From: Patescibacteria group bacterium UBA3466
Lineage (GTDB): Bacteria; Patescibacteriota; Minisyncoccia; Phycocordibacterales; UBA918
Assembly: GCA_002378195.1 (NCBI GenBank)
Contig: DFRJ01000002.1
Span: 204,816 to 268,815, forward strand
DNA: 64,000 nucleotides
Direction of reading: 5' to 3'
Numbering within the stretch: position 1 is the stretch's first letter; each line of letters starts with the position of its first letter. Shown here one piece after another: positions 6,765-37,978 of the stretch. The translations under genes were made by a program, and so were the position numbers. The notes below the pieces were generated by a model. That model was not told where the DNA came from. It did no database searches and saw nothing but the letters and a program-made list of their open reading frames with translations.

Positions 6765-7496
6765 TTAGTAATATCGCGGAGTGTGGGTCTGTTCTAGCTC
6801 CATGTGAATATCCTCAAAGTGGCCAGCTTGAGTGATGATAACGTCACCTTGCTTGAAGAGTTCGAGGATAGCTAAAAAACTAACAATGACATTCTTGTGT
6901 TCAGTTTCTTGTGACCTGATTTCAGAAAATCTAGTCTTCATTTGAGTTTCAATGCGCTTTCTAAGTTTTGCCATCATGTCTTCAAGGGAAATTGTCGGCT
7001 TAACTTTGGCGGTAGGCTTCTTCTCAGTCCGTGGTAAATCGGTTAATACCCTTCTCATGGCTGCTTGCAGTGCGGGAATGGTACAAAAATCATCTGGTAA
7101 GAATAGCGGGTCTCGGGGTGGTGCGTATTCTGGTTCAAACATCATGGTGGTGCCAAAGCGAGTCTGGATGTGTTGAGCCGCATCTCTATAAAGCTGGTAG
7201 CGCTTCAGTCTCTCTTCTAGATTCTCGATACTTTCCTCTTCCTCTTCAGTAAGATCTAGTACTGGTAATAGTGATTTTGATTTAATCAACAGCAGCGTCG
7301 ATGCTAATGAGACAAATTGCGAAGTGTTGGGCAGCGATAGCTCCTGCATGGCGCTGACTGTTTGCATGTATTCATCAGTCACTGCTGCTAAGGCGATGTC
7401 ATTAATCAGTAGTTTTCTTTTCTCAACCAACTCAATAAGCAGCTCCAAAGGACCTTCAAAAGTATCAGTTTTGATTGAAAAGCTTGCTGTGCTCAT
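6765..7496 (-). CDS. scpA: Segregation and condensation protein A (ScpA).
   Basis: FEGPLELLIELVEKRKLLINDIALAAVTDEYM is an ScpA N-terminal signature. It lies adjacent to scpB. Confidence 0.82.
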   Translation of the reverse strand: MSTASFSIKTDTFEGPLELLIELVEKRKLLINDIALAAVTDEYMQTVSAMQELSLPNTSQFVSLASTLLLIKSKSLLPVLDLTEEEEESIENLEERLKRYQLYRDAAQHIQTRFGTTMMFEPEYAPPRDPLFLPDDFCTIPALQAAMRRVLTDLPRTEKKPTAKVKPTISLEDMMAKLRKRIETQMKTRFSEIRSQETEHKNVIVSFLAILELFKQGDVIITQAGHFEDIHMELEQTHTPRYY

Positions 7497-13285: not shown

Positions 13286-14977
13286 CTACATGGCCAGCGG
13301 TAGTTCTAGTGTGAAGCGTGAGCCTTTCCCTTCTCCTTCCGAGTGTGCAGTTATTTCACCACCCATTCCGATAGCCATTTTCTGGGCTACAAATAAGCCG
13401 AGACCAGTACCGTGAATGTTGACGCTATTGGCATTGTGAGCTCGTTCAAACTTACCAAATACAGTGTCTAAGGACTGTTGGTTCATACCGATACCTGTGT
13501 CTTCAATATCTACAAAGATGCGCTTCTTAACTACGTCATCACGAACCAAGACTTTAATACTGCCAGTTGGAGTGTACTTGATCGAGTTATTAATAAGGTT
13601 TTGGATAATTTGAATCACCTTTCCAATGTCCGCACAGACTACACCAGTGCTCTTTAGGTCGGAGCGGAACATCATGCTGAGCCCCTTCTTGAGAGCCTGT
13701 GGTCGGAGGTCATCAGAAATCTTCTCTGCTTCGTCCTTGAGGTTGAAGTCAGCGTTGTTGTATTTCATGTTGCCTGACTCGATGCGGGATACGTTGAGAT
13801 AGTCTTCAATTGAGTACGCCATATTCTTTGACGATTCAGATATACGCTCAATCGCCTCCTCTGCTTTTGGCGGCATTTTTCCGTAGCTTCCGTCAGCTAG
13901 CAGTGACGCATAACCTCTGATAGCGGTTAGCGGGCTGCGCAGTTGGTGGGACGCTATCGACACAAACTCCGACTTGAGCTTGTCCAACTCCTTAAGCCGC
14001 TCGTTTGCGTTAGCTAACTGTGCAGTTAATTTTTCAAGCTCCGATCTTTGTTCTATCTCTTTTCTTACTGATCGAATTAAAAATATTCCAGCTAGAGCTG
14101 TTAGCACCAGAGTGATGGAGGTGAGCACAAGAGTTGTTAATTCCCCGTTTGTGTAGGTGAACTGAGCTGCAATTAAGAGGACCAATGTTAGGACCAGGGC
14201 TTCAGCAGCGTGGGCGCCGACATTAAAGGTCTTAAATCTAACTATTAGTACACCCATCATGACCATAAAGATTGTCATCCCGAAGAATCCATATAGCTCC
14301 AACCTTGAATCTTCTACAAAATGAATTGTTGCAAGGAAGTCTGCTAGATAGAAAATTGTGAAAAATAGCACTAAGAAAGCTTGCACACCTATGCCCATGT
14401 ACACTATTTGCTTTTTAAATACTGAATCTGCGCGAGTTTTATAGTACTTAGATAAAAGCATCCAGGTGTTCCATATAATGGCAACGAGTCCTAAAAGACT
14501 ATAGTATGCGTTGTATAAGGCACCCTCAAAGTCAAAGGCGTTGCACCAGTCTATGTCAAAGCCGCTTAGATTCAGATTTGTAGGCGCCAGCAAGAAGGTT
14601 GGCAAGAGTAGTAGTGTAAATATTACCTTCATTCTGCCCGGGATGTCTTTTTTGTGTATGAATACGTATATGAAATATATACACAAGATAGAGACTAATG
14701 CCTGTAATGGTCCGAATAATGACCATACAAAAATCATGATGTCACTACGGTTGTTTGTCCAAGTAATTAAATTAAATACGGCAATTAGTGAGAAGCTTAA
14801 TGCTATAAAAAATAGAATTCTGTTTAATAGATTACTTGGATTATTTGAAAAAACAAAAATTCCCACTAGCAGAGATAAGGCGATGGCTGGCAAGTGGGCA
14901 TAATATAAGAGATCTGGTATCCAGTCTGCTTGGATAAAAAAGAAAAAACTTGGAGTTTCGGATCCGTAACAAATCAT
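13286..14977 (-). CDS. Sensor histidine kinase with about 7 N-terminal TM helices, a HisKA H-box and a HATPase_c domain. No response regulator is nearby.
   Basis: SHQLRSPLTAIRGYASLL (H-box) and GTGLGLFVAQKMAIGMGGEI (G2 box). Confidence 0.85.
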   Translation of the reverse strand: MICYGSETPSFFFFIQADWIPDLLYYAHLPAIALSLLVGIFVFSNNPSNLLNRILFFIALSFSLIAVFNLITWTNNRSDIMIFVWSLFGPLQALVSILCIYFIYVFIHKKDIPGRMKVIFTLLLLPTFLLAPTNLNLSGFDIDWCNAFDFEGALYNAYYSLLGLVAIIWNTWMLLSKYYKTRADSVFKKQIVYMGIGVQAFLVLFFTIFYLADFLATIHFVEDSRLELYGFFGMTIFMVMMGVLIVRFKTFNVGAHAAEALVLTLVLLIAAQFTYTNGELTTLVLTSITLVLTALAGIFLIRSVRKEIEQRSELEKLTAQLANANERLKELDKLKSEFVSIASHQLRSPLTAIRGYASLLADGSYGKMPPKAEEAIERISESSKNMAYSIEDYLNVSRIESGNMKYNNADFNLKDEAEKISDDLRPQALKKGLSMMFRSDLKSTGVVCADIGKVIQIIQNLINNSIKYTPTGSIKVLVRDDVVKKRIFVDIEDTGIGMNQQSLDTVFGKFERAHNANSVNIHGTGLGLFVAQKMAIGMGGEITAHSEGEGKGSRFTLELPLAM

Positions 14978-15357
14978 GATGTTATATCGTTAGTACATTC
15001 ATCTTCTGATGATGTTGCATCGCAGTAATCAATGGTGCACGACGGGTCATCAGGTTGGCATTCAAAAGCTGCGTCGCAGCTATAAACATCACGACCACAT
15101 AAATCGTATAGATAATCAGCCTGCCTTGTAATAATTGAGTAGTAGTAAGTAGACTCGCAAGCATCAGCCTCCTCTTCATCGTCGCAGCCAATATAACAAC
15201 TTTGTACCTCGCTATCGCAGTCGCCGGCATAGGATACCTGGTAATCATGTAGTACCATAAATCGATAATAGGATGATCCAACTACTAAGAGTATAAGAAC
15301 TGAATTTATTAGTAAGAGAAAATTGCCTCTAACTAACTTTTTCAATAACGGAGCCAT
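14974..15357 (-). CDS. Small membrane-anchored, Cys-rich (10 Cys) acidic protein, translationally coupled to the histidine kinase.
   Basis: An N-terminal TM helix, then DCDSEVQSCYIGCDDEEEADACE...SCDAAFECQPDDPSCTIDYCDATSSEDEC. Its stop overlaps the HK ATG (ATGA). Confidence 0.55.
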   Translation of the reverse strand: MAPLLKKLVRGNFLLLINSVLILLVVGSSYYRFMVLHDYQVSYAGDCDSEVQSCYIGCDDEEEADACESTYYYSIITRQADYLYDLCGRDVYSCDAAFECQPDDPSCTIDYCDATSSEDECTNDITS

Positions 15358-15411
15358 GATCTTCTAATTATAGCAGCAAGCAGTCGCTTGGATGGTGCTT
15401 ACTATTAACAC

Positions 15412-16332
15412 TTATGAAAGATATAAAAGAATGTATGTTCCAATGCCGGTAATGATGATGGCTAATAGTTTTTGCACCACATTCCTTAGGCTGATGTTTT
15501 CCTTGGTTATTCGCGGAAAGAATATAGTCAAAAAGATTCCTATAGCTAACACAAAGAAAGATTGGAATGATTCCATCAGCAGGATTAAAGCAATGGGTGC
15601 CATCATGGCGGCAAAAGAAACTGCCGCGTTTCCGAACATGTATATTATTTCATTTGAAATGTTTACACCTATAATCGCCTTAGAGTTTAATTTTAATGCG
15701 GTCAAAAAATGACCTCTGTATTCCCTGATGAAAAGTAGCATTAGTATTCCTAGGATGACTAGTACGGCACTGTTCCAAAATAAGGTTTGCAGCACATTTT
15801 CCTCAAGCGCCACCATCTTAAATAAGGTGGCTTCGAGTGCCCAAAAAAAGGATGCTAGAAGCATATAATAAACAGTATCTTTTCTTAATTTTAGGTTGTT
15901 TTCGTTGTCTATCTCAAAGGCAATGATTGTGGTTCCGAGAATAATTATGGCCATTGCAATAAGTTGCATCTGTGTGAGTACTTCGTCTAGTATGAAAAAA
16001 CCAAGAAAAATTCCAAATATTGGAACTAGTTGGTAAAACACTATTGCTATCGAAGCTTCGTCATTTTCTAAAGCCTTTAAGTAACAAAAGAGTATTAATA
16101 AGTCTAGTACTCCTATGAAAATTAAGAATAGAGCATTAAAAAGACTCACATTAAGAATGTTTGGTTCAATCAGATAAATTACTGGGAGAGCGAAGACTGA
16201 GAGCAGTGAAGAAAATAGCAGAAGAGTTCCCACTCCGCCCTCTTTAAAATATTTATCCAGAAGAATTTTATCCGTGTGGTTAGTTATTGCGTACAGAAAC
16301 GGACCAATCATTGCTACTAGAAACCAGGTCAT
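15412..16332 (-). CDS. EamA/DMT-family transporter (10 TM helices).
   Basis: Two EamA-like halves of hydrophobic helices. There is a 2-nt gap to the upstream gene. Confidence 0.72.
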   Translation of the reverse strand: MTWFLVAMIGPFLYAITNHTDKILLDKYFKEGGVGTLLLFSSLLSVFALPVIYLIEPNILNVSLFNALFLIFIGVLDLLILFCYLKALENDEASIAIVFYQLVPIFGIFLGFFILDEVLTQMQLIAMAIIILGTTIIAFEIDNENNLKLRKDTVYYMLLASFFWALEATLFKMVALEENVLQTLFWNSAVLVILGILMLLFIREYRGHFLTALKLNSKAIIGVNISNEIIYMFGNAAVSFAAMMAPIALILLMESFQSFFVLAIGIFLTIFFPRITKENISLRNVVQKLLAIIITGIGTYILLYLS

Positions 16333-16333
16333 A

Positions 16334-17161
16334 CTACTTATTCGTTATTGTTTTAATAAAATCTGACACCTCCCTCGGATAAGCGTTCCAGTTTCGATCA
16401 GACTCCTCTTTAGCTGTGATATGTTCGATTATTAAGGGTCGGACACCAATAATTCTTTCGATATATTTGAAAGCTGGATATACATTTTCTCTAAAAAATT
16501 GGTATTCTTCGGGTGTGAAGCATTCATACTGCATTCCATAAACACACATTATGGCCATTGTGCACTTATATTGCTCTAAAATGTCATCTCTATGATGTCT
16601 GTTCACCCATTCTGTCTCTGGTCCTATTTCGGTATTGCTCGGCTTGAATCTGTTAAATAGTTCTCTATGAAAGGTCACCAATAATTTATTCGATTCGGTC
16701 ATTATTTCTGACAGAGGCTTACCCTGGTTCGATGAAAAATCTATAATTGTTTTATATTCTATAATATCATTACCGTTCTTATCTACGCCAACAATTAGCG
16801 GTAGTTTGCCAAGCGGTAGCTTAAGTTCGTTGTCTGGTACAAATTTGCTTTCAGTATCTTCTCCGACTATCAATTTTAGATCAAACCTTGCGCTTTCGGT
16901 ACTGACTTTCTTGAGTTCAAGATTGGGAGTAGCCAGGAATCTTGAAAGGTAGAAAACTGGTTCCTTCTTACTAAAATGATCGGGCAGGTCTGTTTTTAGA
17001 AAATTGTCAACTTTATGAAAAATTTCTGGATCTTCCCTTCTTCGCTTTATTTCCGCAACTGCTTCTTCTGCGGGTGTATAAAAATCAGCCAATAGAAAAT
17101 TTATTGGCGTTATGCGTCTCAAAAGCCCTGCTATACGTTGTTGTAGCATTTTAGTACTCAT
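16334..17161 (-). CDS. Hypothetical protein (275 aa).
   Basis: A long ORF with no recognisable motifs. It contains Cys and His residues (CTMAIMCVYGMQYEC, IIEH). Confidence 0.5.
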   Translation of the reverse strand: MSTKMLQQRIAGLLRRITPINFLLADFYTPAEEAVAEIKRRREDPEIFHKVDNFLKTDLPDHFSKKEPVFYLSRFLATPNLELKKVSTESARFDLKLIVGEDTESKFVPDNELKLPLGKLPLIVGVDKNGNDIIEYKTIIDFSSNQGKPLSEIMTESNKLLVTFHRELFNRFKPSNTEIGPETEWVNRHHRDDILEQYKCTMAIMCVYGMQYECFTPEEYQFFRENVYPAFKYIERIIGVRPLIIEHITAKEESDRNWNAYPREVSDFIKTITNK

Positions 17162-17232
17162 CTTACTGTCTCACGCTCCCTTTTTATTGTAAATAGGTTA
17201 TTTTTACTAGTTGTGGATGTTACAATTTAATA

Positions 17233-17631
17233 ATGTTAGATATTTTCATACGAACCATTTCGGATAAAGACCAAAGATATGACACTGTAGGAGATTATCA
17301 GACTGACGAATGTGGTAAGCAGGTTATTTCGGTGTCTGATTTGAATAATGATAATTTTGAGTTTCTCATAGCCCTTCATGAATTAATTGAAAGTAAATTG
17401 TGTAAAGAAAGAGGAATTACTGATTCTCAAATTGATAAGTTTGATATAGATTACGAATCTAATAGAGAGGATGGAGACCAAGAATCTGAACCGGGAGATC
17501 AGCCTGACGCGCCTTATCACAAAGAGCACGTGTTTGCTTCTAGGATTGAAAAAATGATGGCAGATGAACTAGGTGTTGATTGGGAAAAATACAGTAAGGC
17601 TTGCTCAGAACTTACAGGTTCTTCTAATTAA
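17233..17631 (+). CDS. Hypothetical acidic protein (132 aa).
   Basis: A plus-strand gene divergent from 16334..17161, with a TACAAT -10 box 10 nt upstream and no SD (leaderless-like). It has an acidic low-complexity C-terminal half. Confidence 0.5.
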   Translation: MLDIFIRTISDKDQRYDTVGDYQTDECGKQVISVSDLNNDNFEFLIALHELIESKLCKERGITDSQIDKFDIDYESNREDGDQESEPGDQPDAPYHKEHVFASRIEKMMADELGVDWEKYSKACSELTGSSN

Positions 17632-18109
17632 GATACAGCAAGACCAGTGGGGCTAATAGCCACCAGAAGAAATATTCAGCGGGGGCAAAGAGTGATTGGA
17701 TCGGGGTGCCGGGGCTTAGGAACTCGGTGACTGGTAGGACGTGAAAACTAAATGTCATCACCAGAACTGTTACACCCAGTGCTAATAGTGACTTCTTGCC
17801 AAAAGATTCAAATTTATTTTCGCTGAATTCATCGGGCATGATTCTGGAAAAAAGCTTCGTGGCGAAAAAGGCTATGAAAATAAAAAATGCCATTTTTGCC
17901 ATTGCTACCTGCCCCGAATCTGCAAGGGTACCGAAGACTTTGTCGTAGTACGGAAATTCGATTGAAATAAGCAGAGCCAGGTAAAGTCCGCAGATAATAT
18001 TGATGACCGCCTGCCTACCCTTAAAAATGGCTATGGCAAGAGTCACGCCAAAGACTAAAAGCAAATATGCGATTTCAATGAGGAAGTCCAAAATAAACGC
18101 CCAGTTCAT
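17624..18109 (-). CDS. CvpA-like (colicin V production family) 4-TM membrane protein, putative.
   Basis: Size (161 aa) and TM topology resemble CvpA. This is a weak sequence-only call. Confidence 0.45.
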   Translation of the reverse strand: MNWAFILDFLIEIAYLLLVFGVTLAIAIFKGRQAVINIICGLYLALLISIEFPYYDKVFGTLADSGQVAMAKMAFFIFIAFFATKLFSRIMPDEFSENKFESFGKKSLLALGVTVLVMTFSFHVLPVTEFLSPGTPIQSLFAPAEYFFWWLLAPLVLLYLN

Positions 18110-31855: not shown

Positions 31856-33139
31856 TTATACCCCTTTGATAAATTTTAACAGGTCTTTCTTAACAGTTTT
31901 GGTTGGGCCTGCTGCACTAATGACCAGCTGGCGTGGATCTAGGTGTTTCTTGATTGCTTGATTGACTTCCTTGCGAGTGAGCTTATCTATTTTATCTTTG
32001 TGCACTTTCATTTCAGCAAGACTAAAGCCGTGAACGTGGTAATTATGCAAATCTGCCAACATACCTCCAATTGAATCGTTGACCAGTGTTTGGCCAGTTT
32101 TGGTAATAGTCTTGAATCTGGATAGTTCCTCCTCAGTAATCCCGTGCTGGTAGAATTTCTTAAGCTCTCGATAAGTTGATGCTATGCCTTGCAGTGCTTT
32201 GTCTGGTGCAAAGAATGTCATGATGCGCCATAGACCCTGCTCATTATTCGAAAACCCTTGCAGTGATCCGTAAATACCGTACGTTAGGCCTTCTTTTTCG
32301 CGTACGGTACTCATCAGTCTACCTGAAAAGCCGCCCCATTTAGCTAGTACATTGATTCCTAGGGTTAGTGGCAAATAATCGGGATGATGGAGTGTAATTG
32401 GTATAGGAGCTCCAATGCTGAAGTCGATGTTGGAACGGCTAGGGATATTTGTGGTTACAAGAGCCGCCTTAGGTTGGAGTTGTTTATGGGGACCGGAGTT
32501 GTTGGTCGCATTTTTGACAATAATCTTATCAAGAAATCGTTTGGTGAAATCGATATCAGCTTGTTTACCTGCAACAGATACTATCCAGCGAGATTGCCTG
32601 ACTTTGTTGTGTAGGGCAACAAAGTTTGTCTTAGATACTGTTGGTACAGCTGCAATGATTTCGTCGATTGGCTGAGAATACTTCCTGTCGGCTGGTCCAT
32701 AAAGTTTATTTAGGAGATTGGAGTGCGCAATAGAGCGACTGTCTTCCTTGGCTTGTTCCAATTCATTGATACTGGTGTCCTTAATCCTTTTTATTTCTTT
32801 ACTATTGAATGTTGGTTCTGTGAACATTAATTCTACTAGCTTGAGTAGTTTTTTATACTGCTCTCCTCGACATTTGAGGGTCGCGATCAAATAACCATTG
32901 GCAATCTTAACGCTAACGCTAGCACCAAGTAGGTTTATAGCACCGATAAATTCATCGCGTGTCATGCTACCAGCGCCTGAAAGCAAGGAGTCAGCATACA
33001 TGTGCTCTACGGCTTGGGATTTTTGAGTTCCAGCTGCGCTATGCAGATCTATCGTAATGTTAGTGGTTACAGTTGGAACGTTAGCTTCAATAGAGGCCAA
33101 AGAGAATTTTTGCGCTGATTTATCTATATTATATTTCAT
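31856..33139 (-). CDS. M16 (pitrilysin/insulinase) family protein, non-catalytic partner (no HxxEH).
   Basis: An M16 fold-like N-terminus without the zinc motif. It pairs with the upstream catalytic M16. The start was trimmed to the MKYNID Met to avoid overlap. Confidence 0.72.
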   Translation of the reverse strand: MKYNIDKSAQKFSLASIEANVPTVTTNITIDLHSAAGTQKSQAVEHMYADSLLSGAGSMTRDEFIGAINLLGASVSVKIANGYLIATLKCRGEQYKKLLKLVELMFTEPTFNSKEIKRIKDTSINELEQAKEDSRSIAHSNLLNKLYGPADRKYSQPIDEIIAAVPTVSKTNFVALHNKVRQSRWIVSVAGKQADIDFTKRFLDKIIVKNATNNSGPHKQLQPKAALVTTNIPSRSNIDFSIGAPIPITLHHPDYLPLTLGINVLAKWGGFSGRLMSTVREKEGLTYGIYGSLQGFSNNEQGLWRIMTFFAPDKALQGIASTYRELKKFYQHGITEEELSRFKTITKTGQTLVNDSIGGMLADLHNYHVHGFSLAEMKVHKDKIDKLTRKEVNQAIKKHLDPRQLVISAAGPTKTVKKDLLKFIKGV

Positions 33140-33140
33140 A

Positions 33141-34457
33141 CTAATTATTTCCCTTAAAGTACCCAATAGTCAGATTGCTTTCTACAAAAAGTTTGCTAAG
33201 TAGTTGCAGTATTTGCTTAGTGGAGATTTGCTTGAGAATGTTCGGTGTCTCTTCGTATCTTTCCCAGTGTCCTGATGCAACGTACTCGGTTAGTTCCTGA
33301 CAAATTTTCAGTGAGTGTTGTCTTGAGAAAAGTTCTTGGGTGAGAATCTGTTCCTTACTCTTTTTTATCAAGTTATCAATGGTTGATTTATCCAGTGCTG
33401 AAATAGCATGTAATACTAAACTCTCAATCTCTTCGTGTTCTTGACCCTTAGCTAAGTTGATGGATATCATACCCAGGTTTTCTTCCGAAGTCGGCTCGAT
33501 GGCGCCTGAAACACTCGATGCCTTACCAGTATCTACTAGTAATTTGTGCAGCAGGCTTTCGGCGCCGCCGGTTAATACATCCAGCATAATAGTTGTTGCA
33601 AACCACTCTTGTGAAGGGAATCCGGAATGCTTGAAGCCAATAGCCAGCAGATTTGTGGTTGACGGTCTGGTGATTGTGACGCGTCTCAGTCCCTCTTGTT
33701 TTGGCTCTCTGATTGAGAAGCGTGGAATGGCGGTCTTTGGACTACTAATGCCACTGAAATGCTTCTTCACCGCTTTTAGCGCAGTGTCTCGATCAATGTC
33801 ACCTACGACCATCATTACGGCATTGTCTGGTCGGTAATAATCTCTATAAAATTTCTCCAGTTTAGCTGGTGTATAGTCCTCAATGTCTTCACGATAACCA
33901 ATTGTTTCGTGTCCGTATGGATGAGAGTGGTAGGCCGTACTCACCATTTGTACGCTTAGTGCAAAATCAGGGTCTCCGTTGTACATATCGAACTCACTCA
34001 AAACATTACCTCGTTCAGGATTAAGCTCTTTGTCGTTAAGGATTACGCCGGTCATCCTTTCAGCTTCAATTTGCAATGCCTCATCTAGCATATCTGTTGG
34101 GTAGCTAAAATAATATGTAGTTCGATCCTTCCAGGTATTGGCATTAAGTACGCTTCCAGTATTTCTCTCAAAATTCATGCTCCAGCTGTCAGTTAAACCC
34201 CGAGCACGGTCAAAGTTGGTGGGTTTAAAAAGCATGTGCTCAAGCATGTGAGCAACTCCAGTTTCGCCTCTCGCTTCATCGCGAGCACCAACTAAGTAGG
34301 TGATGTTTGAAGTAACCACCCCAGTTTCTGGACGATTATAAAAGAGTACTCGAAGACCGTTTCTTCTCAGTCGGTATTCTTCAATACCAGATACGGTCTT
34401 TATATATTCATAACCAGCAAGTTGGGTTTTAGCTTGGTTCGCTGTTCTTTTCTTGGA
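33141..34457 (-). CDS. M16 family zinc peptidase, catalytic subunit.
   Basis: An inverted zinc motif HMLEH(x)n E: GETGVAHMLEHMLFK. The start is the MSKKRT Met, with a 29-nt overlap with the upstream HD gene. Confidence 0.8.
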   Translation of the reverse strand, partial: SKKRTANQAKTQLAGYEYIKTVSGIEEYRLRRNGLRVLFYNRPETGVVTSNITYLVGARDEARGETGVAHMLEHMLFKPTNFDRARGLTDSWSMNFERNTGSVLNANTWKDRTTYYFSYPTDMLDEALQIEAERMTGVILNDKELNPERGNVLSEFDMYNGDPDFALSVQMVSTAYHSHPYGHETIGYREDIEDYTPAKLEKFYRDYYRPDNAVMMVVGDIDRDTALKAVKKHFSGISSPKTAIPRFSIREPKQEGLRRVTITRPSTTNLLAIGFKHSGFPSQEWFATTIMLDVLTGGAESLLHKLLVDTGKASSVSGAIEPTSEENLGMISINLAKGQEHEEIESLVLHAISALDKSTIDNLIKKSKEQILTQELFSRQHSLKICQELTEYVASGHWERYEETPNILKQISTKQILQLLSKLFVESNLTIGYFKGNN

Positions 34458-35025
34458 CATCAAAAATGAAATTCTTAAACTCTTCAAAGGTCTGATTAAA
34501 TTCGTGCACAATACCATCTGACAACCGACTATTTATTGCGTTAGCTATGTTTTGATAGGCTTCGAGTTGATTTTCTAAGCTGTTGCCAAAATCCCTGAAG
34601 AAACCGTGGTGGTCATCGAAATAATCTTCAACTATACATCTAAAATTATGTGTCTTGTCGGCAGCCGACACCAAGACAGATTCTATCGGTGCTTTCTTAA
34701 GCTTCTTGGCGTAGTTTTGTTTAACTTGAAGCCAAGGGATCCGCTCGCCATTTTTGTACTCTTCTTCAGTGACGTGCTCTACAATGTTGGCTACGTTGTC
34801 ACCGAAATCAGTTTTAAGCTCCTCCAGTGTGTAATCGGTGTCTTCAATAGTGTCGTGAAGTAGCGCCGCAACGAGAGTGTCCTCATCTTCCGTATAATCG
34901 CGTAGAATCATGGTTACAGCCATTAAGTGAGTGATATAGGGTAGCGGAATGTCACCCTTACGCACTTGATCCTGATGCAATAGTGCGGCTGCTTTTATGG
35001 CTTGCTCTACTTTATAAGAGTACAT
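34429..35025 (-). CDS. HD-domain protein resembling the SpoT/Mesh1 (p)ppGpp-hydrolase domain (small alarmone hydrolase-like).
   Basis: ITHLMAVTMIL...TLVAALLHDTIEDT (the HD...HDxxED pattern of the RelA/SpoT HD domain). 198 aa. Confidence 0.6.
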   Translation of the reverse strand: MYSYKVEQAIKAAALLHQDQVRKGDIPLPYITHLMAVTMILRDYTEDEDTLVAALLHDTIEDTDYTLEELKTDFGDNVANIVEHVTEEEYKNGERIPWLQVKQNYAKKLKKAPIESVLVSAADKTHNFRCIVEDYFDDHHGFFRDFGNSLENQLEAYQNIANAINSRLSDGIVHEFNQTFEEFKNFIFDVQEKNSEPS

Positions 35026-35028
35026 AGT

Positions 35029-35373
35029 TTATATTCTTTGTAGTTCACGATGTAAAGCCTCTACATCCTTTTTTAGGTTTCTAACGGTCTGTTTCTTGCG
35101 CTCCATTGTTCTTCGGATCTGATTCGCGTCTGCAAGTAGCTTTTGGGCTTCTTCTAGCTCGGAAGCTGCATCAGGATTATCCTTATCGCGGCGTAGTTGT
35201 GACACCCGACGCTCGTAGTTGCTAATCTCACTGATAATTCTATCCTCCTCTATTATCTGCTCTACATATTGTCGCACCTCCCCTACCAAGCTCATGATAG
35301 CAGAATTTTGAATGTGGATGTCTTTTGAAGCCAGAGCAGCTGACACTTTTGCTTGTAGTTCACGTGTACTCAT
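35029..35373 (-). CDS. Hypothetical coiled-coil protein (114 aa).
   Basis: Predicted to be all coiled coil. It is translationally coupled (ATGA) to the upstream MGMT-domain gene. Confidence 0.45.
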   Translation of the reverse strand: MSTRELQAKVSAALASKDIHIQNSAIMSLVGEVRQYVEQIIEEDRIISEISNYERRVSQLRRDKDNPDAASELEEAQKLLADANQIRRTMERKKQTVRNLKKDVEALHRELQRI

Positions 35374-35639
35374 GTCTTCATAGTATATCCTTCACTCTCT
35401 AATAGTGCACGCTTCTTATCTTCACCTCCGCGATTGTAGTCTCCTAGCTGGCCATCACTTCTGATCACGCGATGACACGGTATGTTCGGATCAAAATTAT
35501 TAGCCATAACGTTGGCAACAGCTCGGTATGCTTTTGGATTGCCGGCCAATTTAGCCACTTCTTTGTAGGAGAGTACATGGCCAACCTCTATTTGGCGCAC
35601 AACATTCTTAACTCTATGTGAAAATTTCCGGCCAGCCAT
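35370..35639 (-). CDS. Stand-alone MGMT/Ogt C-terminal DNA-binding domain protein that retains the active-site Cys (PCHRV).
   Basis: VLSYKEVAKLAGNPKAYRAVANVMANN...IPCHRVIRSDGQLGDYNRGGEDKKRALLESEG. Confidence 0.7.
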   Translation of the reverse strand: MAGRKFSHRVKNVVRQIEVGHVLSYKEVAKLAGNPKAYRAVANVMANNFDPNIPCHRVIRSDGQLGDYNRGGEDKKRALLESEGYTMKT

Positions 35640-35641
35640 TA

Positions 35642-36430
35642 TTACTTTTTGACGTTAGCAAAGTGTATCGCTTGCAACTTTTTGCCAGCCGCTTCTCTAT
35701 ATGGACAATACTCGCAATCTTCCCCACACGGCGGCAAGTCCTTTCTGTCTAGGCAGGTCTTAATTTCAATTAGAGTGTCTTCTATCCACTTGGTGTCTGC
35801 TACTACTGGCACTAGTGTCGTTTCAAACTGAAGCTGATTGTTAAACGCTTCAAGGTTCTTGTCAGCATTGGCGTAAACCAAGTAGCCAGTATCTTGAACT
35901 TTGAAACCATTTTTCTCTAAGAGCCAGCGGTACACACCAAGCTGTCGAGCGTATTGCTTTTCCCAGGGTGAGTCACCTAGCTTGTCTATCGTACCTTCCT
36001 TTGAGGTCGATTTATAGTCAACAATTATCAGCTCCCCTTCGCTATTGATCCAAATATCGTCCACTCCTCCGCTTACTACGAGCCCAGTCTCGGCGTGAGT
36101 GTGGGTTATACCAACAAACGGGTCGCGCCAGGTTTCTAGATCATGGTGAGCAAATGGTACGGCCTTGATTTCGTATTTATCCATTATCGGATGAGGAGTT
36201 TTGGTTGCTCGGTACTTATCAAATTCGTTCTTAAATAGCTCATCGACCGCAATATTCAAATTGAATGATGGGAAACCTGGTCGTTTAGTCCCTAGCACAT
36301 TGTCGAGGTAAAAACACCTTGGGCACTCAAAGAAATAGTCTATTTTTGATCGTGATAACTTCCACTTCTTGCCTTTGTAATTCCACTCGGCTGATCGATT
36401 GGGATTATATCTGTATCTATATTCTGCCAT
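35642..36430 (-). CDS. Cas4/RecB-like PD-(D/E)xK nuclease with a 4Fe-4S Cys cluster (stand-alone, no CRISPR).
   Basis: An N-terminal CPRC, motif II IVDYKS, a QxxxY (EKQYARQLGVY), and a C-terminal CGEDCEYC. Confidence 0.65.
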   Translation of the reverse strand: MAEYRYRYNPNRSAEWNYKGKKWKLSRSKIDYFFECPRCFYLDNVLGTKRPGFPSFNLNIAVDELFKNEFDKYRATKTPHPIMDKYEIKAVPFAHHDLETWRDPFVGITHTHAETGLVVSGGVDDIWINSEGELIIVDYKSTSKEGTIDKLGDSPWEKQYARQLGVYRWLLEKNGFKVQDTGYLVYANADKNLEAFNNQLQFETTLVPVVADTKWIEDTLIEIKTCLDRKDLPPCGEDCEYCPYREAAGKKLQAIHFANVKK

Positions 36431-36463
36431 TTGATGATTATATCATTGATAAAGAGTCAAAAT

Positions 36464-36492
36464 AAAAAAAGCCCGCAACTGCGGGCTTTTTT
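36464..36492. terminator. Bidirectional intrinsic terminator.
   Basis: AAAAAAA-GCCCGC-aact-GCGGGC-TTTTTT. Confidence 0.75.
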
Positions 36493-36504
36493 GCTTGAAT
36501 TCAA

Positions 36505-37050
36505 CTATTCAGCGCGGAAAGTACCAAATACTTGGTCGATCTGCACATCAGTTGCTAGGTTGAATCCACGGTCACCGTTTTCAGAGAAGATAACGATAGC
36601 GTAGTTTCGGCCTGGTGTAGTAGATCGCTGTAGAGTAATTTCAGCTGGAACTAGACCTTGTGATTCGCTAAATCGTACAACTCCCAGGATGAATCCGAGG
36701 TTGTCATTATCGTATTCGCGTACACCAATCCACCCTTCACTGATCGGGTAAGTAGCGCTTTCAAGAGCGATTGAAGCTGAGGCTGGTTGGTCGCTTACTA
36801 CCACTTCACCTTCTCCTACGGTTAGTTCTGGTGTCTCGACTGCTTCTTCAGCTGTTTCTTCGCCTTCTTCCTCGTCGCTTACTTCACCTTCTTCAGCTCC
36901 GTCTTCCATCTCAGTTGCTTCGTTCTCGACTTCGGCAACTGGGGCTGTTGCGGTTGGGCCTGAAAATGCCCAGACAAGCATTCCTCCTATAAGTAGTCCG
37001 ACGATAAAAGCGACTAAAGTCTTTTGTCCGTCTTGTGTTTCTTCTGCCAT
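36505..37050 (-). CDS. Hypothetical membrane-anchored protein with an acidic E-rich linker and a C-terminal beta-rich domain.
   Basis: An N-terminal TM helix. The EEGE repeats explain the Leu/Arg-rich antisense ORF 36771..36992. Confidence 0.5.
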   Translation of the reverse strand: MAEETQDGQKTLVAFIVGLLIGGMLVWAFSGPTATAPVAEVENEATEMEDGAEEGEVSDEEEGEETAEEAVETPELTVGEGEVVVSDQPASASIALESATYPISEGWIGVREYDNDNLGFILGVVRFSESQGLVPAEITLQRSTTPGRNYAIVIFSENGDRGFNLATDVQIDQVFGTFRAE

Positions 37051-37144: not shown

Positions 37145-37978
37145 TTATTTCTGACCGCAGAGCAATCTGGCTTCCTGCATCAAGGCTTCATGTTTTCGTT
37201 TTGGTAAATGTAAATGTCTAAGAACAGCCTCGTGCTCAAGAATGTCACGACACAAGATAATATCGCGAGCAATCAAGGTTTCTGCTTGCGAAGCCGATAA
37301 ATTTTGTAGAACTGTAACCGGGTAGACTCCAGCTCGCTGAATTTGGTCGTGCAGGTTATTGTTTTTGGGATAATCCCAGCTTAGCATTTTGAGGCCCACG
37401 CAACGGCCATAATCTTGCGCAGTACTTGTAAATTTTGTGTTTGTAATTAACCAAAACTCGCCTATGCCGCACACATCGGCATTACAGATTTTTTTATTTT
37501 TGAGATCCAAAAGTCTTGCATATGAATACATGGCCACTTGTAGATCAGATTTTATTCCCGGTCGAGCGTGAAATTTAGCTTCTCCGATGAAGCTGTGCTC
37601 TTCGTTGTAGGCGGCCAGGTCTATTTCGTGCGGAGCGCAGTTACCCTGAAGGGTGACGCCAGTCTTAGTTGTGTAGCCTTCTGCCTCGTACAATTTTGCT
37701 AAAAACTTTTCGAAAGGAAATCCAGTTGGTCCGAGATTAAATAGGGCTCGTCTTAGTGAGTAGCGAGCAGCAGCTGGTGGTCGGCTGTTCCGCAATAGCG
37801 AAAAGGCGTGACGATATATCTCCTGCGTTTGAACTCCGTCATATAAGGTCTTGTTAACCTCGGCAACTATTTCGTTGATTTCGTGCGGATCTGCTCCGGC
37901 GCGGCGTAGTGATCGTCTGAGTTTTTCAACTTTAAAGAACTCGGCTGTGCCATCAGCCTTGGTGATAGTTACTGACAT
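37145..37978 (-). CDS. ATP-cone domain fused to an Mrr-type (PD-(D/E)xK) restriction-endonuclease catalytic domain.
   Basis: An N-terminal ATP-cone (VTITKADGTAEFFKVEKLRRSLRRAG...EIVAEVNKTL). Mrr_cat-like HEIDLAAY...FIGEAKFH...FWLITNTKFTSTAQDYG. Its ATG overlaps the mnmA stop (TAATG). Confidence 0.6.
   Translation of the reverse strand: MSVTITKADGTAEFFKVEKLRRSLRRAGADPHEINEIVAEVNKTLYDGVQTQEIYRHAFSLLRNSRPPAAARYSLRRALFNLGPTGFPFEKFLAKLYEAEGYTTKTGVTLQGNCAPHEIDLAAYNEEHSFIGEAKFHARPGIKSDLQVAMYSYARLLDLKNKKICNADVCGIGEFWLITNTKFTSTAQDYGRCVGLKMLSWDYPKNNNLHDQIQRAGVYPVTVLQNLSASQAETLIARDIILCRDILEHEAVLRHLHLPKRKHEALMQEARLLCGQK

Follow-up and report, generated by a model that had tools for sequence, protein, structure and literature searches.

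A stand-alone PD-(D/E)XK nuclease heads a probable core operon of marine Paceibacteria, with a single-domain MGMT protein among its optional passengers

The 64,000-nucleotide stretch of DNA analysed here (the window) comes from marine Paceibacteria (CPR/Patescibacteria; Tara Oceans contigs), and its content is core housekeeping, including gltX, dnaK, leuS, uvrA, alaS, aspS and mnmA. Within it we find that a stand-alone nuclease of the RecB/Cas4 superfamily, which we call NUC, is inherited vertically within a core-genome syntenic block, and that an MGMT-domain-only protein and a fast-evolving helical protein encoded behind it are optional passengers of the operon that NUC heads. A sequence-only reading of this DNA had joined the three genes in one tightly coupled unit and had proposed for it either DNA repair or end processing, or a minimal defence or anti-defence cassette. 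We think it rather probable that this is an ordinary Paceibacteria core operon, with NUC as a housekeeping DNA-end-processing exonuclease and MGMT and UDG as facultative repair neighbours.

The three minus-strand open reading frames are real: NUC (262 aa) occupies 36430..35642, the MGMT-domain protein (89 aa) 35639..35370 and the helical protein, CC114 (114 aa), 35373..35029. The gap from the NUC stop to the MGMT start is 2 nt, as had been read; the second junction, given as a 4-nt spacing, is really a 4-nt overlap (ATGA) of the MGMT stop with the CC114 start. Nor is the packed run limited to three genes. A gene for an HD_4 (RelA/SpoT-hydrolase-type) small-alarmone-hydrolase-like protein of 198 aa (34429..35025, minus strand) begins 3 nt past CC114, and its end is overlapped by the first of two M16 (insulinase-type) peptidase genes (31856..34460, minus strand; PF00675/PF05193), which overlap or abut in turn; gene calls in identical contigs give them lengths of 439 and 427 aa. 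The co-directional order is NUC, MGMT-C, CC114, HD_4, M16, M16. Such close packing is typical of the whole streamlined window and is therefore not evidence of functional coupling. Upstream of NUC, at 37145..37978 on the minus strand, ATP-cone and AF1548-like_C profiles identify a 277-aa fusion of an ATP-cone domain with an AF1548-type restriction-endonuclease-like domain (PDB 1Y88, E 1.2e-31), which in the window is a separate transcription unit from NUC. Regional GC is 43-44%, like most of the window, and shows no dip of the kind seen at 14-18 kb (38%).

The run starts right after a strong bidirectional terminator, as the earlier reading had it. This intrinsic hairpin (36465..36492, minus strand) ends the upstream TM181 gene; it reads AAAAAAGCCCGC-AGTT-GCGGGCTTTTTT, has 12 pairs of which 6 are GC, and is symmetric through its A- and U-tracts, with U-tracts on both strands. 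Folding energies are -18.4 kcal/mol (z -4.5, for the hairpin 36492..36465) and -18.9 kcal/mol (z -5.8), and 0 of 200 shuffles were equally stable. A putative extended -10 promoter element, TGATATAAT (36437..36445, minus strand), lies 6 nt upstream of the NUC ATG with no Shine-Dalgarno sequence, and at least 14 relatives carry the same TGnTATA(A/C)T element 6-7 nt ahead of their ATG. This placement predicts a leaderless operon transcript; both the promoter function and the leaderless translation are read from the element's sequence and recurrence. We rejected a -35-like TTGACT (36460-36455) as functional, since it sits just 12 nt from the -10 element, and propose only the extended -10 as the promoter.

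Profiles, invariant residues, an AF2 model and fold neighbours all place NUC among the PD-(D/E)XK nucleases. It scores above threshold with PF12705 PDDEXK_1 (54.2 bits, E 2.6e-14, cutoff 22) and weakly with PF01930 Cas_Cas4 (26.7 bits, cutoff 22.7, C-terminal half only), matches the PADLOC Cas4 profiles (E 4e-13), and at 40 bits falls below the cutoff of 65 for TIGR00372 cas4. The motifs CPRC (C36, C39), DYK (138-140), QxxxY (163-167) and CGEDCEYC (235-242) are all present, and the earlier assignment to the RecB/Cas4 family holds. The catalytic residues are D124/D125, D138-x-K140 and Q163xxxY167; D124/D125, D138, K140, Q163 and Y167, like the cysteines C36, C39, C239 and C242, are each kept by 74-76 members of a diverse set of 76 family representatives. 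The AF2 model has a pLDDT of 93.7. A single-sequence search of the PDB gave no match and the family profile matched only SSO0001 there (E 0.003), so that a close solved structure for the family was not found (fold TM <= 0.5; best sequence E 0.003). The family comprises more than 7,700 90%-identity clusters, the top 120 of which are all at least 72% identical, and its orthologues are named "PD-(D/E)XK nuclease family protein" by their sources.

CGEDCEYC had been read as part of an Fe-S motif. The motif itself is there, but only 5 of the 76 representatives keep its first cysteine, C235, which leaves an Fe-S site built on three C-terminal cysteines unsupported as stated. The invariant set is instead C36 and C39 with C239 and C242, a 2+2 CxxC...CxxC arrangement that, judged from its ligands, could hold Fe-S or equally Zn. 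In the structural neighbour 3L0A the corresponding position is occupied by Zn (PMC3466216). The "iron staple" of Cas4 consists of four cysteines, one N-terminal and three C-terminal (PMC3466216).

A stand-alone Cas4-like nuclease is not in itself novel: solo Cas4-like nucleases are over-represented in CPR, including Nomurabacteria, and a role in "defence or repair" has been suggested for them (PMC5704561). NUC shares with the solo-Cas4/PF12705 proteins that Hudaiberdiev et al. 2017 (PMC5704561) describe from CPR bacteria and DPANN archaea a cysteine metal site, a location outside CRISPR-cas, small-genome environmental hosts, mainly vertical inheritance and purifying selection. It differs in matching PF12705 best while staying under the TIGR00372 cutoff, in its 2+2 rather than 1+3 cysteines, and in being fixed in a core block by the ATP-cone/AF1548 nuclease, where it is conserved above a neighbouring tRNA synthetase. 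Our literature search turned up no description of these profile scores, the 2+2 cysteines, the core-block placement or this degree of conservation. With CRISPR Cas4 (SSO0001, Pcal_0546, type I-C Cas4 and the Cas4-Cas1 fusion; PDB 4IC1, 4R5Q, 8D3L, 7MI4) NUC has in common the fold, the D, D/ExK and QxxxY residues and a cysteine cluster joining the N- and C-terminal helices, but it is about 50 residues longer, only 12-24% identical (TM <= 0.5), and has no cas1, cas2 or array nearby. It is equally close to Dna2, RecE, MGME1, AdnA and Exo5. Unlike the end-resecting and flap-processing AddB/AdnA nuclease domains, Dna2, Exo5 and MGME1, to which it has no sequence-level similarity, NUC is a single domain of 262 aa with no fused or adjacent helicase. 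The DUF3799 exonuclease EUBREC_2131 (PDB 3L0A) belongs to a different family (18% identity) and has a phage-related context.

The 89-aa protein is, on the evidence of PF01035, TIGR00589 and an alignment to human AGT, the C-terminal domain of an O6-alkylguanine-DNA alkyltransferase and nothing more. PF01035 spans it end to end (98.6 bits, cutoff 27; profile 2-80 of 81), and the match, residues 6-84, leaves no space for an N-terminal AGT domain, in agreement with the earlier description of an MGMT-domain-only protein retaining PCHRV. It scores 79 bits with TIGR00589 (cutoff 46.4), stays far under cutoff with AGT equivalog models (for example, NF007626, 49 versus 192 bits) and matches PDB 3GVA (E 9e-7). 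Against residues 101-175 of human AGT, PCHRV and the equivalents of Y114, R128, N137, Y158 and E172 are kept. There are hundreds of single-domain orthologues; its 120 best homologues, 76-122 aa long with a median of 86 aa, all keep PCHRV. Proteins of about 86 aa are already known from Paceibacteria as "MGMT family proteins", and with these and the Ogt, Ada-C and MGMT AGTs the 89-aa protein shares PF01035, PCHRV, the arginine finger, the Asn hinge and the Tyr/Glu residues. It does not have the N-terminal domain (PF02870), which every stand-alone AGT with characterised biochemistry carries. The C-domain of human AGT is inactive in isolation, which makes the alkyltransferase activity suggested by the retained residues not certain for this protein. 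According to the literature, the N-terminal domain is not strictly required, and the AGT C-domain also occurs fused to EndoV (PMC10779285).

ATL proteins such as S. pombe Atl1 and E. coli YbaZ likewise consist of one domain, the AGT C-domain, but in them the active-site Cys is replaced (Trp/Ala), whereas the 89-aa protein and all 120 homologues keep it. We therefore rejected an ATL identity. The window encodes UvrA, so one can conceive of a hand-off to nucleotide excision repair.

CC114 is a different kind of protein. It contains one Pro and one Gly, and a single-sequence AF2 model (pLDDT 86) gives helices at 3-16, 19-61 and 68-113, an all-helical hairpin, in line with its earlier description as all coiled coil. 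A homologue search in 5.8e9 clusters returned only CC114 itself; compared with coiled-coil ORFs at the same position in relatives, it gave no blastp match and an hhalign probability of 1.2%. We thus rejected membership in a conserved family and, with no homology detected to these ORFs, keep CC114 as their positional analogue only. The analogues are small charged helical ORFs ahead of HD_4, of at least two families. By its position this fast-evolving helical protein goes with HD_4 rather than with NUC or MGMT. The HD_4 protein itself matches PF13328 (76.8 bits) and PDB 7qoc (Mesh1; SAH) at E 9.7e-23. We considered a toxSAS-type toxin-antitoxin pairing of CC114 with HD_4 and dropped it for want of a RelA/SpoT synthetase partner.

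The coupling of the three genes does not survive comparison with 64 species-level relatives' loci. MGMT adjoins NUC in 18 of them; the small helical ORF occurs in about 10, always just 5' of HD_4, which it tracks; and both are found together in only two. HD_4 follows NUC in 17 loci, and the ATP-cone/AF1548 gene lies immediately upstream of NUC in 33. What is kept is the block itself, DUF8128-yceG-mnmA-ATPcone/AF1548-NUC-...-alaS, whose order persists even in relatives with a NUC identity of about 47%; in the clades with an adjacent MGMT, NUC is 50-80% identical to that of the window. In three clade groups no other protein of the block is as well conserved as NUC: its median identities are 71, 55 and 50%, those of AlaRS 66, 49 and 43%. 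The ATP-cone/AF1548 protein is second. The conservation of NUC is equal in loci with and without MGMT. High conservation would also be expected for an essential role other than repair, such as nucleotide salvage. Repair-type genes beside NUC include UDG in locus L079, DinB in L031 and, in four distant loci, RmuC. Among five sampled MGMT-only homologues, three directly follow NUC; such genes also occur away from it, beside PolX/NUDIX or unrelated genes.

These data, with MGMT (18/64) and UDG (L079) as NUC neighbours, are in keeping with the earlier suggestion of repair or end processing. In the model we prefer, the extended -10 right behind the preceding gene's terminator would drive the operon and yield a leaderless mRNA. 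NUC is a vertically inherited, very strongly constrained member of the RecB/Cas4/Exo5/Dna2 superfamily of metal-staple exonucleases, its four-Cys CxxC...CxxC site stapling the N- and C-terminal helices together through what may be Fe-S or Zn. By analogy with its distant relatives it may act as a Mg2+-dependent nuclease on DNA 5' ends or flaps, in recombinational repair or the processing of replication intermediates. The 89-aa protein would be a single-domain suicide O6-alkylguanine alkyltransferase of a type common in Paceibacteria. The slot downstream of NUC is variable: MGMT is a facultative passenger there, and UDG can take the place as well.

Among twenty over-long members of the NUC family, the fusion partners found were HD_4, NUDIX, TIR and DUF2779. 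The HD_4, NUDIX and TIR fusions and the conserved ATP-cone gene next door hint that NUC is tied to nucleotide metabolism or signalling, and a plain repair model leaves them unexplained.

An alternative that we regard as possible, if unlikely, is a nucleotide-salvage or DNA-recycling module in which NUC breaks imported or damaged DNA down as far as mononucleotides. Its partners in the pathway would be the ATP-cone/AF1548 nuclease encoded upstream, as a (d)ATP sensor, and the nucleotide pyrophosphohydrolases HD_4 and NUDIX encoded downstream. CPR bacteria are not known to make nucleotides de novo. The frequency and conservation of the ATP-cone gene upstream and the frequency of HD_4 downstream favour salvage, as do the independent NUC+HD_4 and NUC+NUDIX fusions, and such a role would explain the extreme purifying selection that holds NUC above a tRNA synthetase. 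But CPR synteny is broadly conserved and the block also holds the unrelated yceG, mnmA and alaS, which makes adjacency weak evidence; here, moreover, a terminator and a promoter lie between the ATP-cone gene and NUC. The fusions are single representatives and possible gene-call artefacts, and in the NUC+HD_4 protein P0135 the HD motif reads YD. The facultative MGMT and UDG neighbours indicate repair, not catabolism, and metal-staple nucleases of known role (AddB, Dna2, Exo5, Cas4) process DNA ends instead of degrading DNA in bulk.

More speculatively, NUC and the ATP-cone/AF1548 nuclease might together make up a system, specific to Paceibacteria, that senses (d)ATP and processes DNA ends, with HD_4/NUDIX hydrolases and MGMT as members in some lineages. 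It would replace machinery of the RecBCD/AddAB type or couple repair to nucleotide recycling in bacteria that live on scavenged nucleotides; the unusual CxxC...CxxC staple would then mark a distinct essential nuclease family. We searched the literature on Patescibacteria for RecBCD/AddAB, and for ATP-cone fusions to AF1548, and found nothing relevant.

It is improbable, in our judgement, that MGMT docks on NUC in a two-component alkylation-repair system, a non-covalent analogue of AGT-EndoV in which lesion recognition is coupled to incision or resection. The 2-nt junction, an NUC-MGMT adjacency that recurs across clades and in three of the five sampled homologues, and the documented fusion of an AGT C-domain to an endonuclease (PMC10779285) speak for it. 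Set against these are the 46 of 64 NUC genes without an adjacent MGMT, the absence of any NUC-MGMT fusion among the 20 over-long family members, the MGMT-only genes found elsewhere, and a conservation of NUC that is the same with or without MGMT.

The searches for defence and mobile elements agree with the preferred reading of a housekeeping core operon. No tandem or CRISPR-like repeats were found in the window and no CRISPR-like arrays in it or in 77 related loci; PADLOC Cas1/Cas2 profiles matched nothing in the window or among 110 neighbours of distant NUC homologues, confirming the earlier statement that the window holds neither cas1/cas2 nor a repeat array. In PADLOC-DB v2 only Cas4 profiles matched NUC, the matches of CC114 and HD_4 were weak and at chance level, the MGMT protein had none, and no complete defence system was found, the partner genes being absent from the window. 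A tblastn search of NUC against 50,697 phage records gave no match, and BFVD fold matches were distant only (TM <= 0.5, 11-17% identity). Vertical inheritance in a core block, top conservation and no phage homologues are the opposite of what is expected of a defence gene. A cassette of NUC, MGMT-C and CC114 directed against foreign DNA, for example modified phage DNA, is therefore very improbable, and the distribution of the genes already goes most of the way to refuting it: the Cas4 profile matches, the defence functions of some Cas4-family enzymes outside CRISPR (such as ACE1 with pAgo, PMC12094033), one TIR+NUC fusion (P0163), SspH and AbiU sporadically near distant NUC homologues and the fast evolution of CC114 stand against a trio complete in 2 of 64 loci, a NUC vertical in a housekeeping block and conserved beyond AlaRS, no phage or MGE homologues found, an unremarkable regional GC, no cas1/cas2 or arrays in the loci searched, and MGMT-only proteins that also occur away from NUC.

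We conclude that the finding is mostly ordinary, a solo Cas4-like nuclease and a short MGMT protein, both of kinds already catalogued, in a cassette that dissolves on comparison. Its remaining value lies in a defined 260-aa nuclease family with a 2+2 Cys staple and a Paceibacteria-wide conservation above alanyl-tRNA synthetase, persistently beside an ATP-cone-fused restriction-endonuclease-like protein. The DNA repair and nucleotide economy of CPR bacteria are poorly understood, which makes NUC a reasonable candidate for biochemistry, and the Cys-retaining MGMT proteins of about 86 aa offer a natural test of the AGT C-domain alone as a functional alkyltransferase.

NUC, a stand-alone RecB/Cas4-superfamily nuclease, lies in a part of the window where every gene is on the minus strand. 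The ORF listing places NUC (262 aa) at 36430..35642, MGMT, an 89-aa O6-alkylguanine transferase (AGT) C-domain protein, at 35639..35370, the 114-aa helical protein CC114 at 35373..35029 and the 198-aa protein HD at 35025..34429, with two M16 peptidase genes downstream. Gaps are 2 nt between NUC and MGMT and 3 nt between CC114 and HD, and the end of HD is overlapped by the first M16 gene; what the sequence-only reading took for a 4-nt spacing between MGMT and CC114 is a 4-nt ATGA overlap. The strong bidirectional terminator that it placed before NUC was borne out: a 12-bp hairpin with A6 and U7 flanks (36492..36465), 12 nt past the stop of the upstream membrane-protein gene, folds at -18.4 kcal/mol (z = -4.5, with none of 200 shuffles equally stable), and the other strand forms as good a hairpin, again with a U-tract at its end.

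TGATATAAT, 6 nt before the NUC ATG (36431-36445, minus strand), is not accompanied by a Shine-Dalgarno sequence. With an extended -10 element so close to the ATG and no Shine-Dalgarno, NUC probably heads a leaderless mRNA. TGnTATA(A/C)T occurs 6-7 nt before the NUC ATG, again without a Shine-Dalgarno sequence, in at least 14 relatives (range L007-L025), most of which also have an upstream hairpin, suggesting that the leaderless mRNA is conserved across these and the window. We found no convincing terminator between NUC and the M16 genes, and the operon therefore most likely reaches well past NUC, MGMT and CC114. The membrane-protein gene (36505-37050, minus) encodes 181 aa, with a TM helix at the N terminus, then a strongly acidic low-complexity linker and then a C-terminal domain; neither Pfam nor NCBIfam gave a match. 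In closer relatives (38-66% identity) it is syntenic between NUC and the ATP-cone gene upstream. The window is core housekeeping DNA (gltX, dnaK/dnaJ, leuS, uvrA, alaS, aspS, mnmA and ychF). A segment at 14001-18000 has a GC content of ~38%, versus ~44-46% elsewhere in the window, and could have been acquired horizontally or be atypical for another reason; it has no connection with the NUC locus.

We mapped the window proteins onto 71 species-level loci from GTDB genomes, counting the 64 that extend 1.5 kb or more beyond NUC on its downstream side. The ATP-cone gene was upstream of NUC in 33 of the 64 and alaS downstream in 28, MGMT was directly downstream of NUC in 18, HD_4, the domain type of HD, was downstream in 17, and a small charged helical ORF was present in about 10. 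The sequence-only reading had treated NUC, MGMT and CC114 as one tightly coupled unit; MGMT and a helical ORF occurred together in just two loci (L011, L018). Other loci had NUC-MGMT-HD with no space for a helical ORF (e.g. L007), NUC-CC-HD without MGMT (L019-L025), NUC directly followed by HD (L008) or, in distant Paceibacteria, ATPcone-NUC-alaS with nothing intervening (L042, L048, L051, L077). Reciprocally, we checked five MGMT-only homologs on long contigs. Three directly followed NUC and preceded an unannotated small ORF, charged or Q-rich and coiled-coil-like in sequence, and then HD_4, one of them with UDG inserted between helical ORF and HD_4 (L079, 4189-4854). The other two were elsewhere, one beside PolX and NUDIX and one amid unrelated genes; at L081 (1197-3511), PolX(PHP) and NUDIX are upstream of MGMT. 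We count these, with UDG at L079 and DinB/IMS at L031, among the DNA-repair genes that border NUC or an MGMT-only gene in relatives. We conclude that NUC, MGMT and CC114 do not form a conserved module. What is conserved is NUC and its position in a DUF8128-yceG-mnmA-ATPcone-NUC-...-alaS block, and the NUC-to-alaS stretch is a variable slot holding MGMT, UDG, helical ORF plus HD_4, and peptidases in varying combinations. The proteins of the proposed unit are of kinds already known. At L012, 328 nt separate NUC from HD_4 (6786-7114), with stops in all frames; this stretch may be what is left of an MGMT or helical-ORF gene, and such decay would suit the variable-slot idea.

The domain readings made from sequence were correct for both NUC and MGMT. 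NUC matches PF12705 (PDDEXK_1, 54.2 bits) and, more weakly, PF01930 (Cas_Cas4, 26.7 bits; cutoff 22.7), but falls below the NCBIfam cas4 equivalog threshold (40 bits versus 65). An identical protein is present on Tara Oceans contigs (up to 638 kb), and relatives carry names including Candidatus Nomurabacteria, Kaiserbacteria and Paceibacteria. A word-index search returned 7,769 90%-identity clusters, the best 120 all 72-100% identical; when 50%-identity representatives were searched exhaustively, 1,768 clusters reached E <= 1e-3 and 241 reached E <= 1e-30. We aligned 35 locus-derived sequences and 76 database representatives to gauge conservation. D124/D125, D138-x-K140 and Q163xxxY167 are kept in 74-76 of the 76 representatives, and C36, C39, C239 and C242 in 75-76. 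The proposed CGEDCEYC motif thus held for its last two cysteines, whereas its first, C235, is kept in just five of 76, so the family signature is CxxC...CxxC. This 2+2 pattern differs from the one N-terminal and three C-terminal cysteines of the canonical "iron staple" in Cas4, Csa1 and AddB, and the related nuclease 3L0A has Zn at the equivalent site (PMC3466216); the metal in NUC may therefore be Fe-S or Zn. A comparison list, whose values carry no label, gives a Cas4-Cas1 fusion (12.3), Dna2 and RecE (11.5 each), MGME1 (11.4), AdnA and 3L0A (11.2 each), type I-C Cas4 (11.1), SSO0001 (11.0) and Exo5 (10.4).

MGMT corresponds to a full PF01035 domain (98.6 bits, positions 2-80 of 81 in the profile), and its 89 aa leave no room for an N-terminal AGT domain. 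Aligned to residues 101-175 of human AGT, it keeps PCHRV, the arginine finger, the Asn hinge, Tyr and Glu. Its best 120 homologs are all 76-122 aa long (median 86), consist of PF01035 alone and keep PCHRV; the source annotation is "MGMT family protein" in Kaiserbacteria, Liptonbacteria and Minisyncoccia. The N-domain is missing from ATL proteins too, but they have lost the Cys that MGMT retains, so we read MGMT as a Cys-retaining single-domain AGT, a catalogued form that we did not find characterized biochemically in the literature. C-domain-only versions are known fused to an endonuclease or histone-like domain (PMC10779285). Public gene calls on identical DNA differ in the start, giving 76 aa (L001, 6831-7061) or 89 aa (L002, 3388-3657); the homolog alignment (MxxF..V...V..I..G.V.SY.EVA) supports the 89-aa start at 35639.

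CC114, which belongs to no family and has one Pro and one Gly, was predicted by AF2 without an alignment to form a helical hairpin (pLDDT 86; helices 3-16, 19-61 and 68-113). A search of 5.8 billion clusters matched only CC114 itself, and profile comparison showed no resemblance between it and the remaining helical ORFs. These fast-evolving ORFs (78-169 aa; 35029-35373 on the minus strand of the window, and L010, L011, L018-L025 and L078-L080) lie between NUC/MGMT and HD_4 and fall into two or more sequence families, with orphans besides. Wherever present they are directly 5' of HD_4, at 14 of 21 HD_4-bearing loci, and their products may partner or regulate the HD_4 protein. HD itself is of the RelA/SpoT-hydrolase type; its closest solved relatives (7qoc, E 1e-22) are stand-alone HD-domain proteins of ~200 aa deposited as "guanosine polyphosphate pyrophosphohydrolases", and it also matches Mesh1 and one deposited small alarmone hydrolase.

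Within the syntenic block, NUC ranks first in conservation in all three clade groups. Median identities to the window protein in groups A, B and C are 71, 55 and 50% for NUC, 66, 49 and 43% for AlaRS, 60, 44 and 45% for MnmA, and 64, 41 and 42% for the ATP-cone protein. Conservation of this kind marks a core cellular enzyme rather than a gene caught in an arms race, and it fits the conclusion already published that solo-cas4 genes, over-represented in CPR genomes without CRISPR, evolve vertically under ordinary purifying selection (PMC5704561). We judge it somewhat better than an even bet that NUC is a housekeeping nuclease, which would process DNA ends or flaps, that MGMT is an independent direct-reversal repair protein and occasional companion, and that CC114 serves HD_4 as an accessory.

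Second only to NUC in conservation within the block is the gene for a 277-aa protein (37145-37978, minus) in which an N-terminal ATP-cone is joined to a restriction-endonuclease-like domain of AF1548 type (PDB 1Y88, E 1.2e-31), a fusion for which we found no paper in the literature. ATP-cones are allosteric (d)ATP sensors of ribonucleotide reductases and NrdR. Fusions of NUC to HD_4 (P0135, where the HD motif is YD) and to NUDIX (P0124) parallel the gene neighborhood in the window; NUC is also fused to DUF2779 (P0212). The fusions to HD_4 and NUDIX and the conserved ATP-cone neighbor lend support to a nucleotide-salvage pathway joining NUC, the ATP-cone nuclease and HD_4/NUDIX hydrolases, which we regard as possible, if rather unlikely. 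A non-covalent repair complex of NUC with MGMT seems to us improbable. A fusion of NUC to TIR+GYF (P0163) looks defense-like, and tblastn found no phage homolog of NUC (viral fold matches were distant); we give a defense cassette very little credence. That the window lacks a CRISPR array and cas1/cas2 was upheld: we found no tandem or CRISPR-like repeats in its 64 kb, and a PADLOC scan of all 69 ORFs hit Cas4 profiles alone, on NUC, with no Cas1/Cas2. Cas1 and Cas2 were also absent among ten NUC neighbors in syntenic loci and 110 in non-syntenic loci, the latter including RmuC (four loci) and a DinB/IMS polymerase upstream of NUC (L031, 4192-5277).

What gives the locus its remaining value is a nuclease family that is well defined, highly conserved and uncharacterized; its Cys staple is atypical, and its ATP-cone nuclease neighbor is intriguing.
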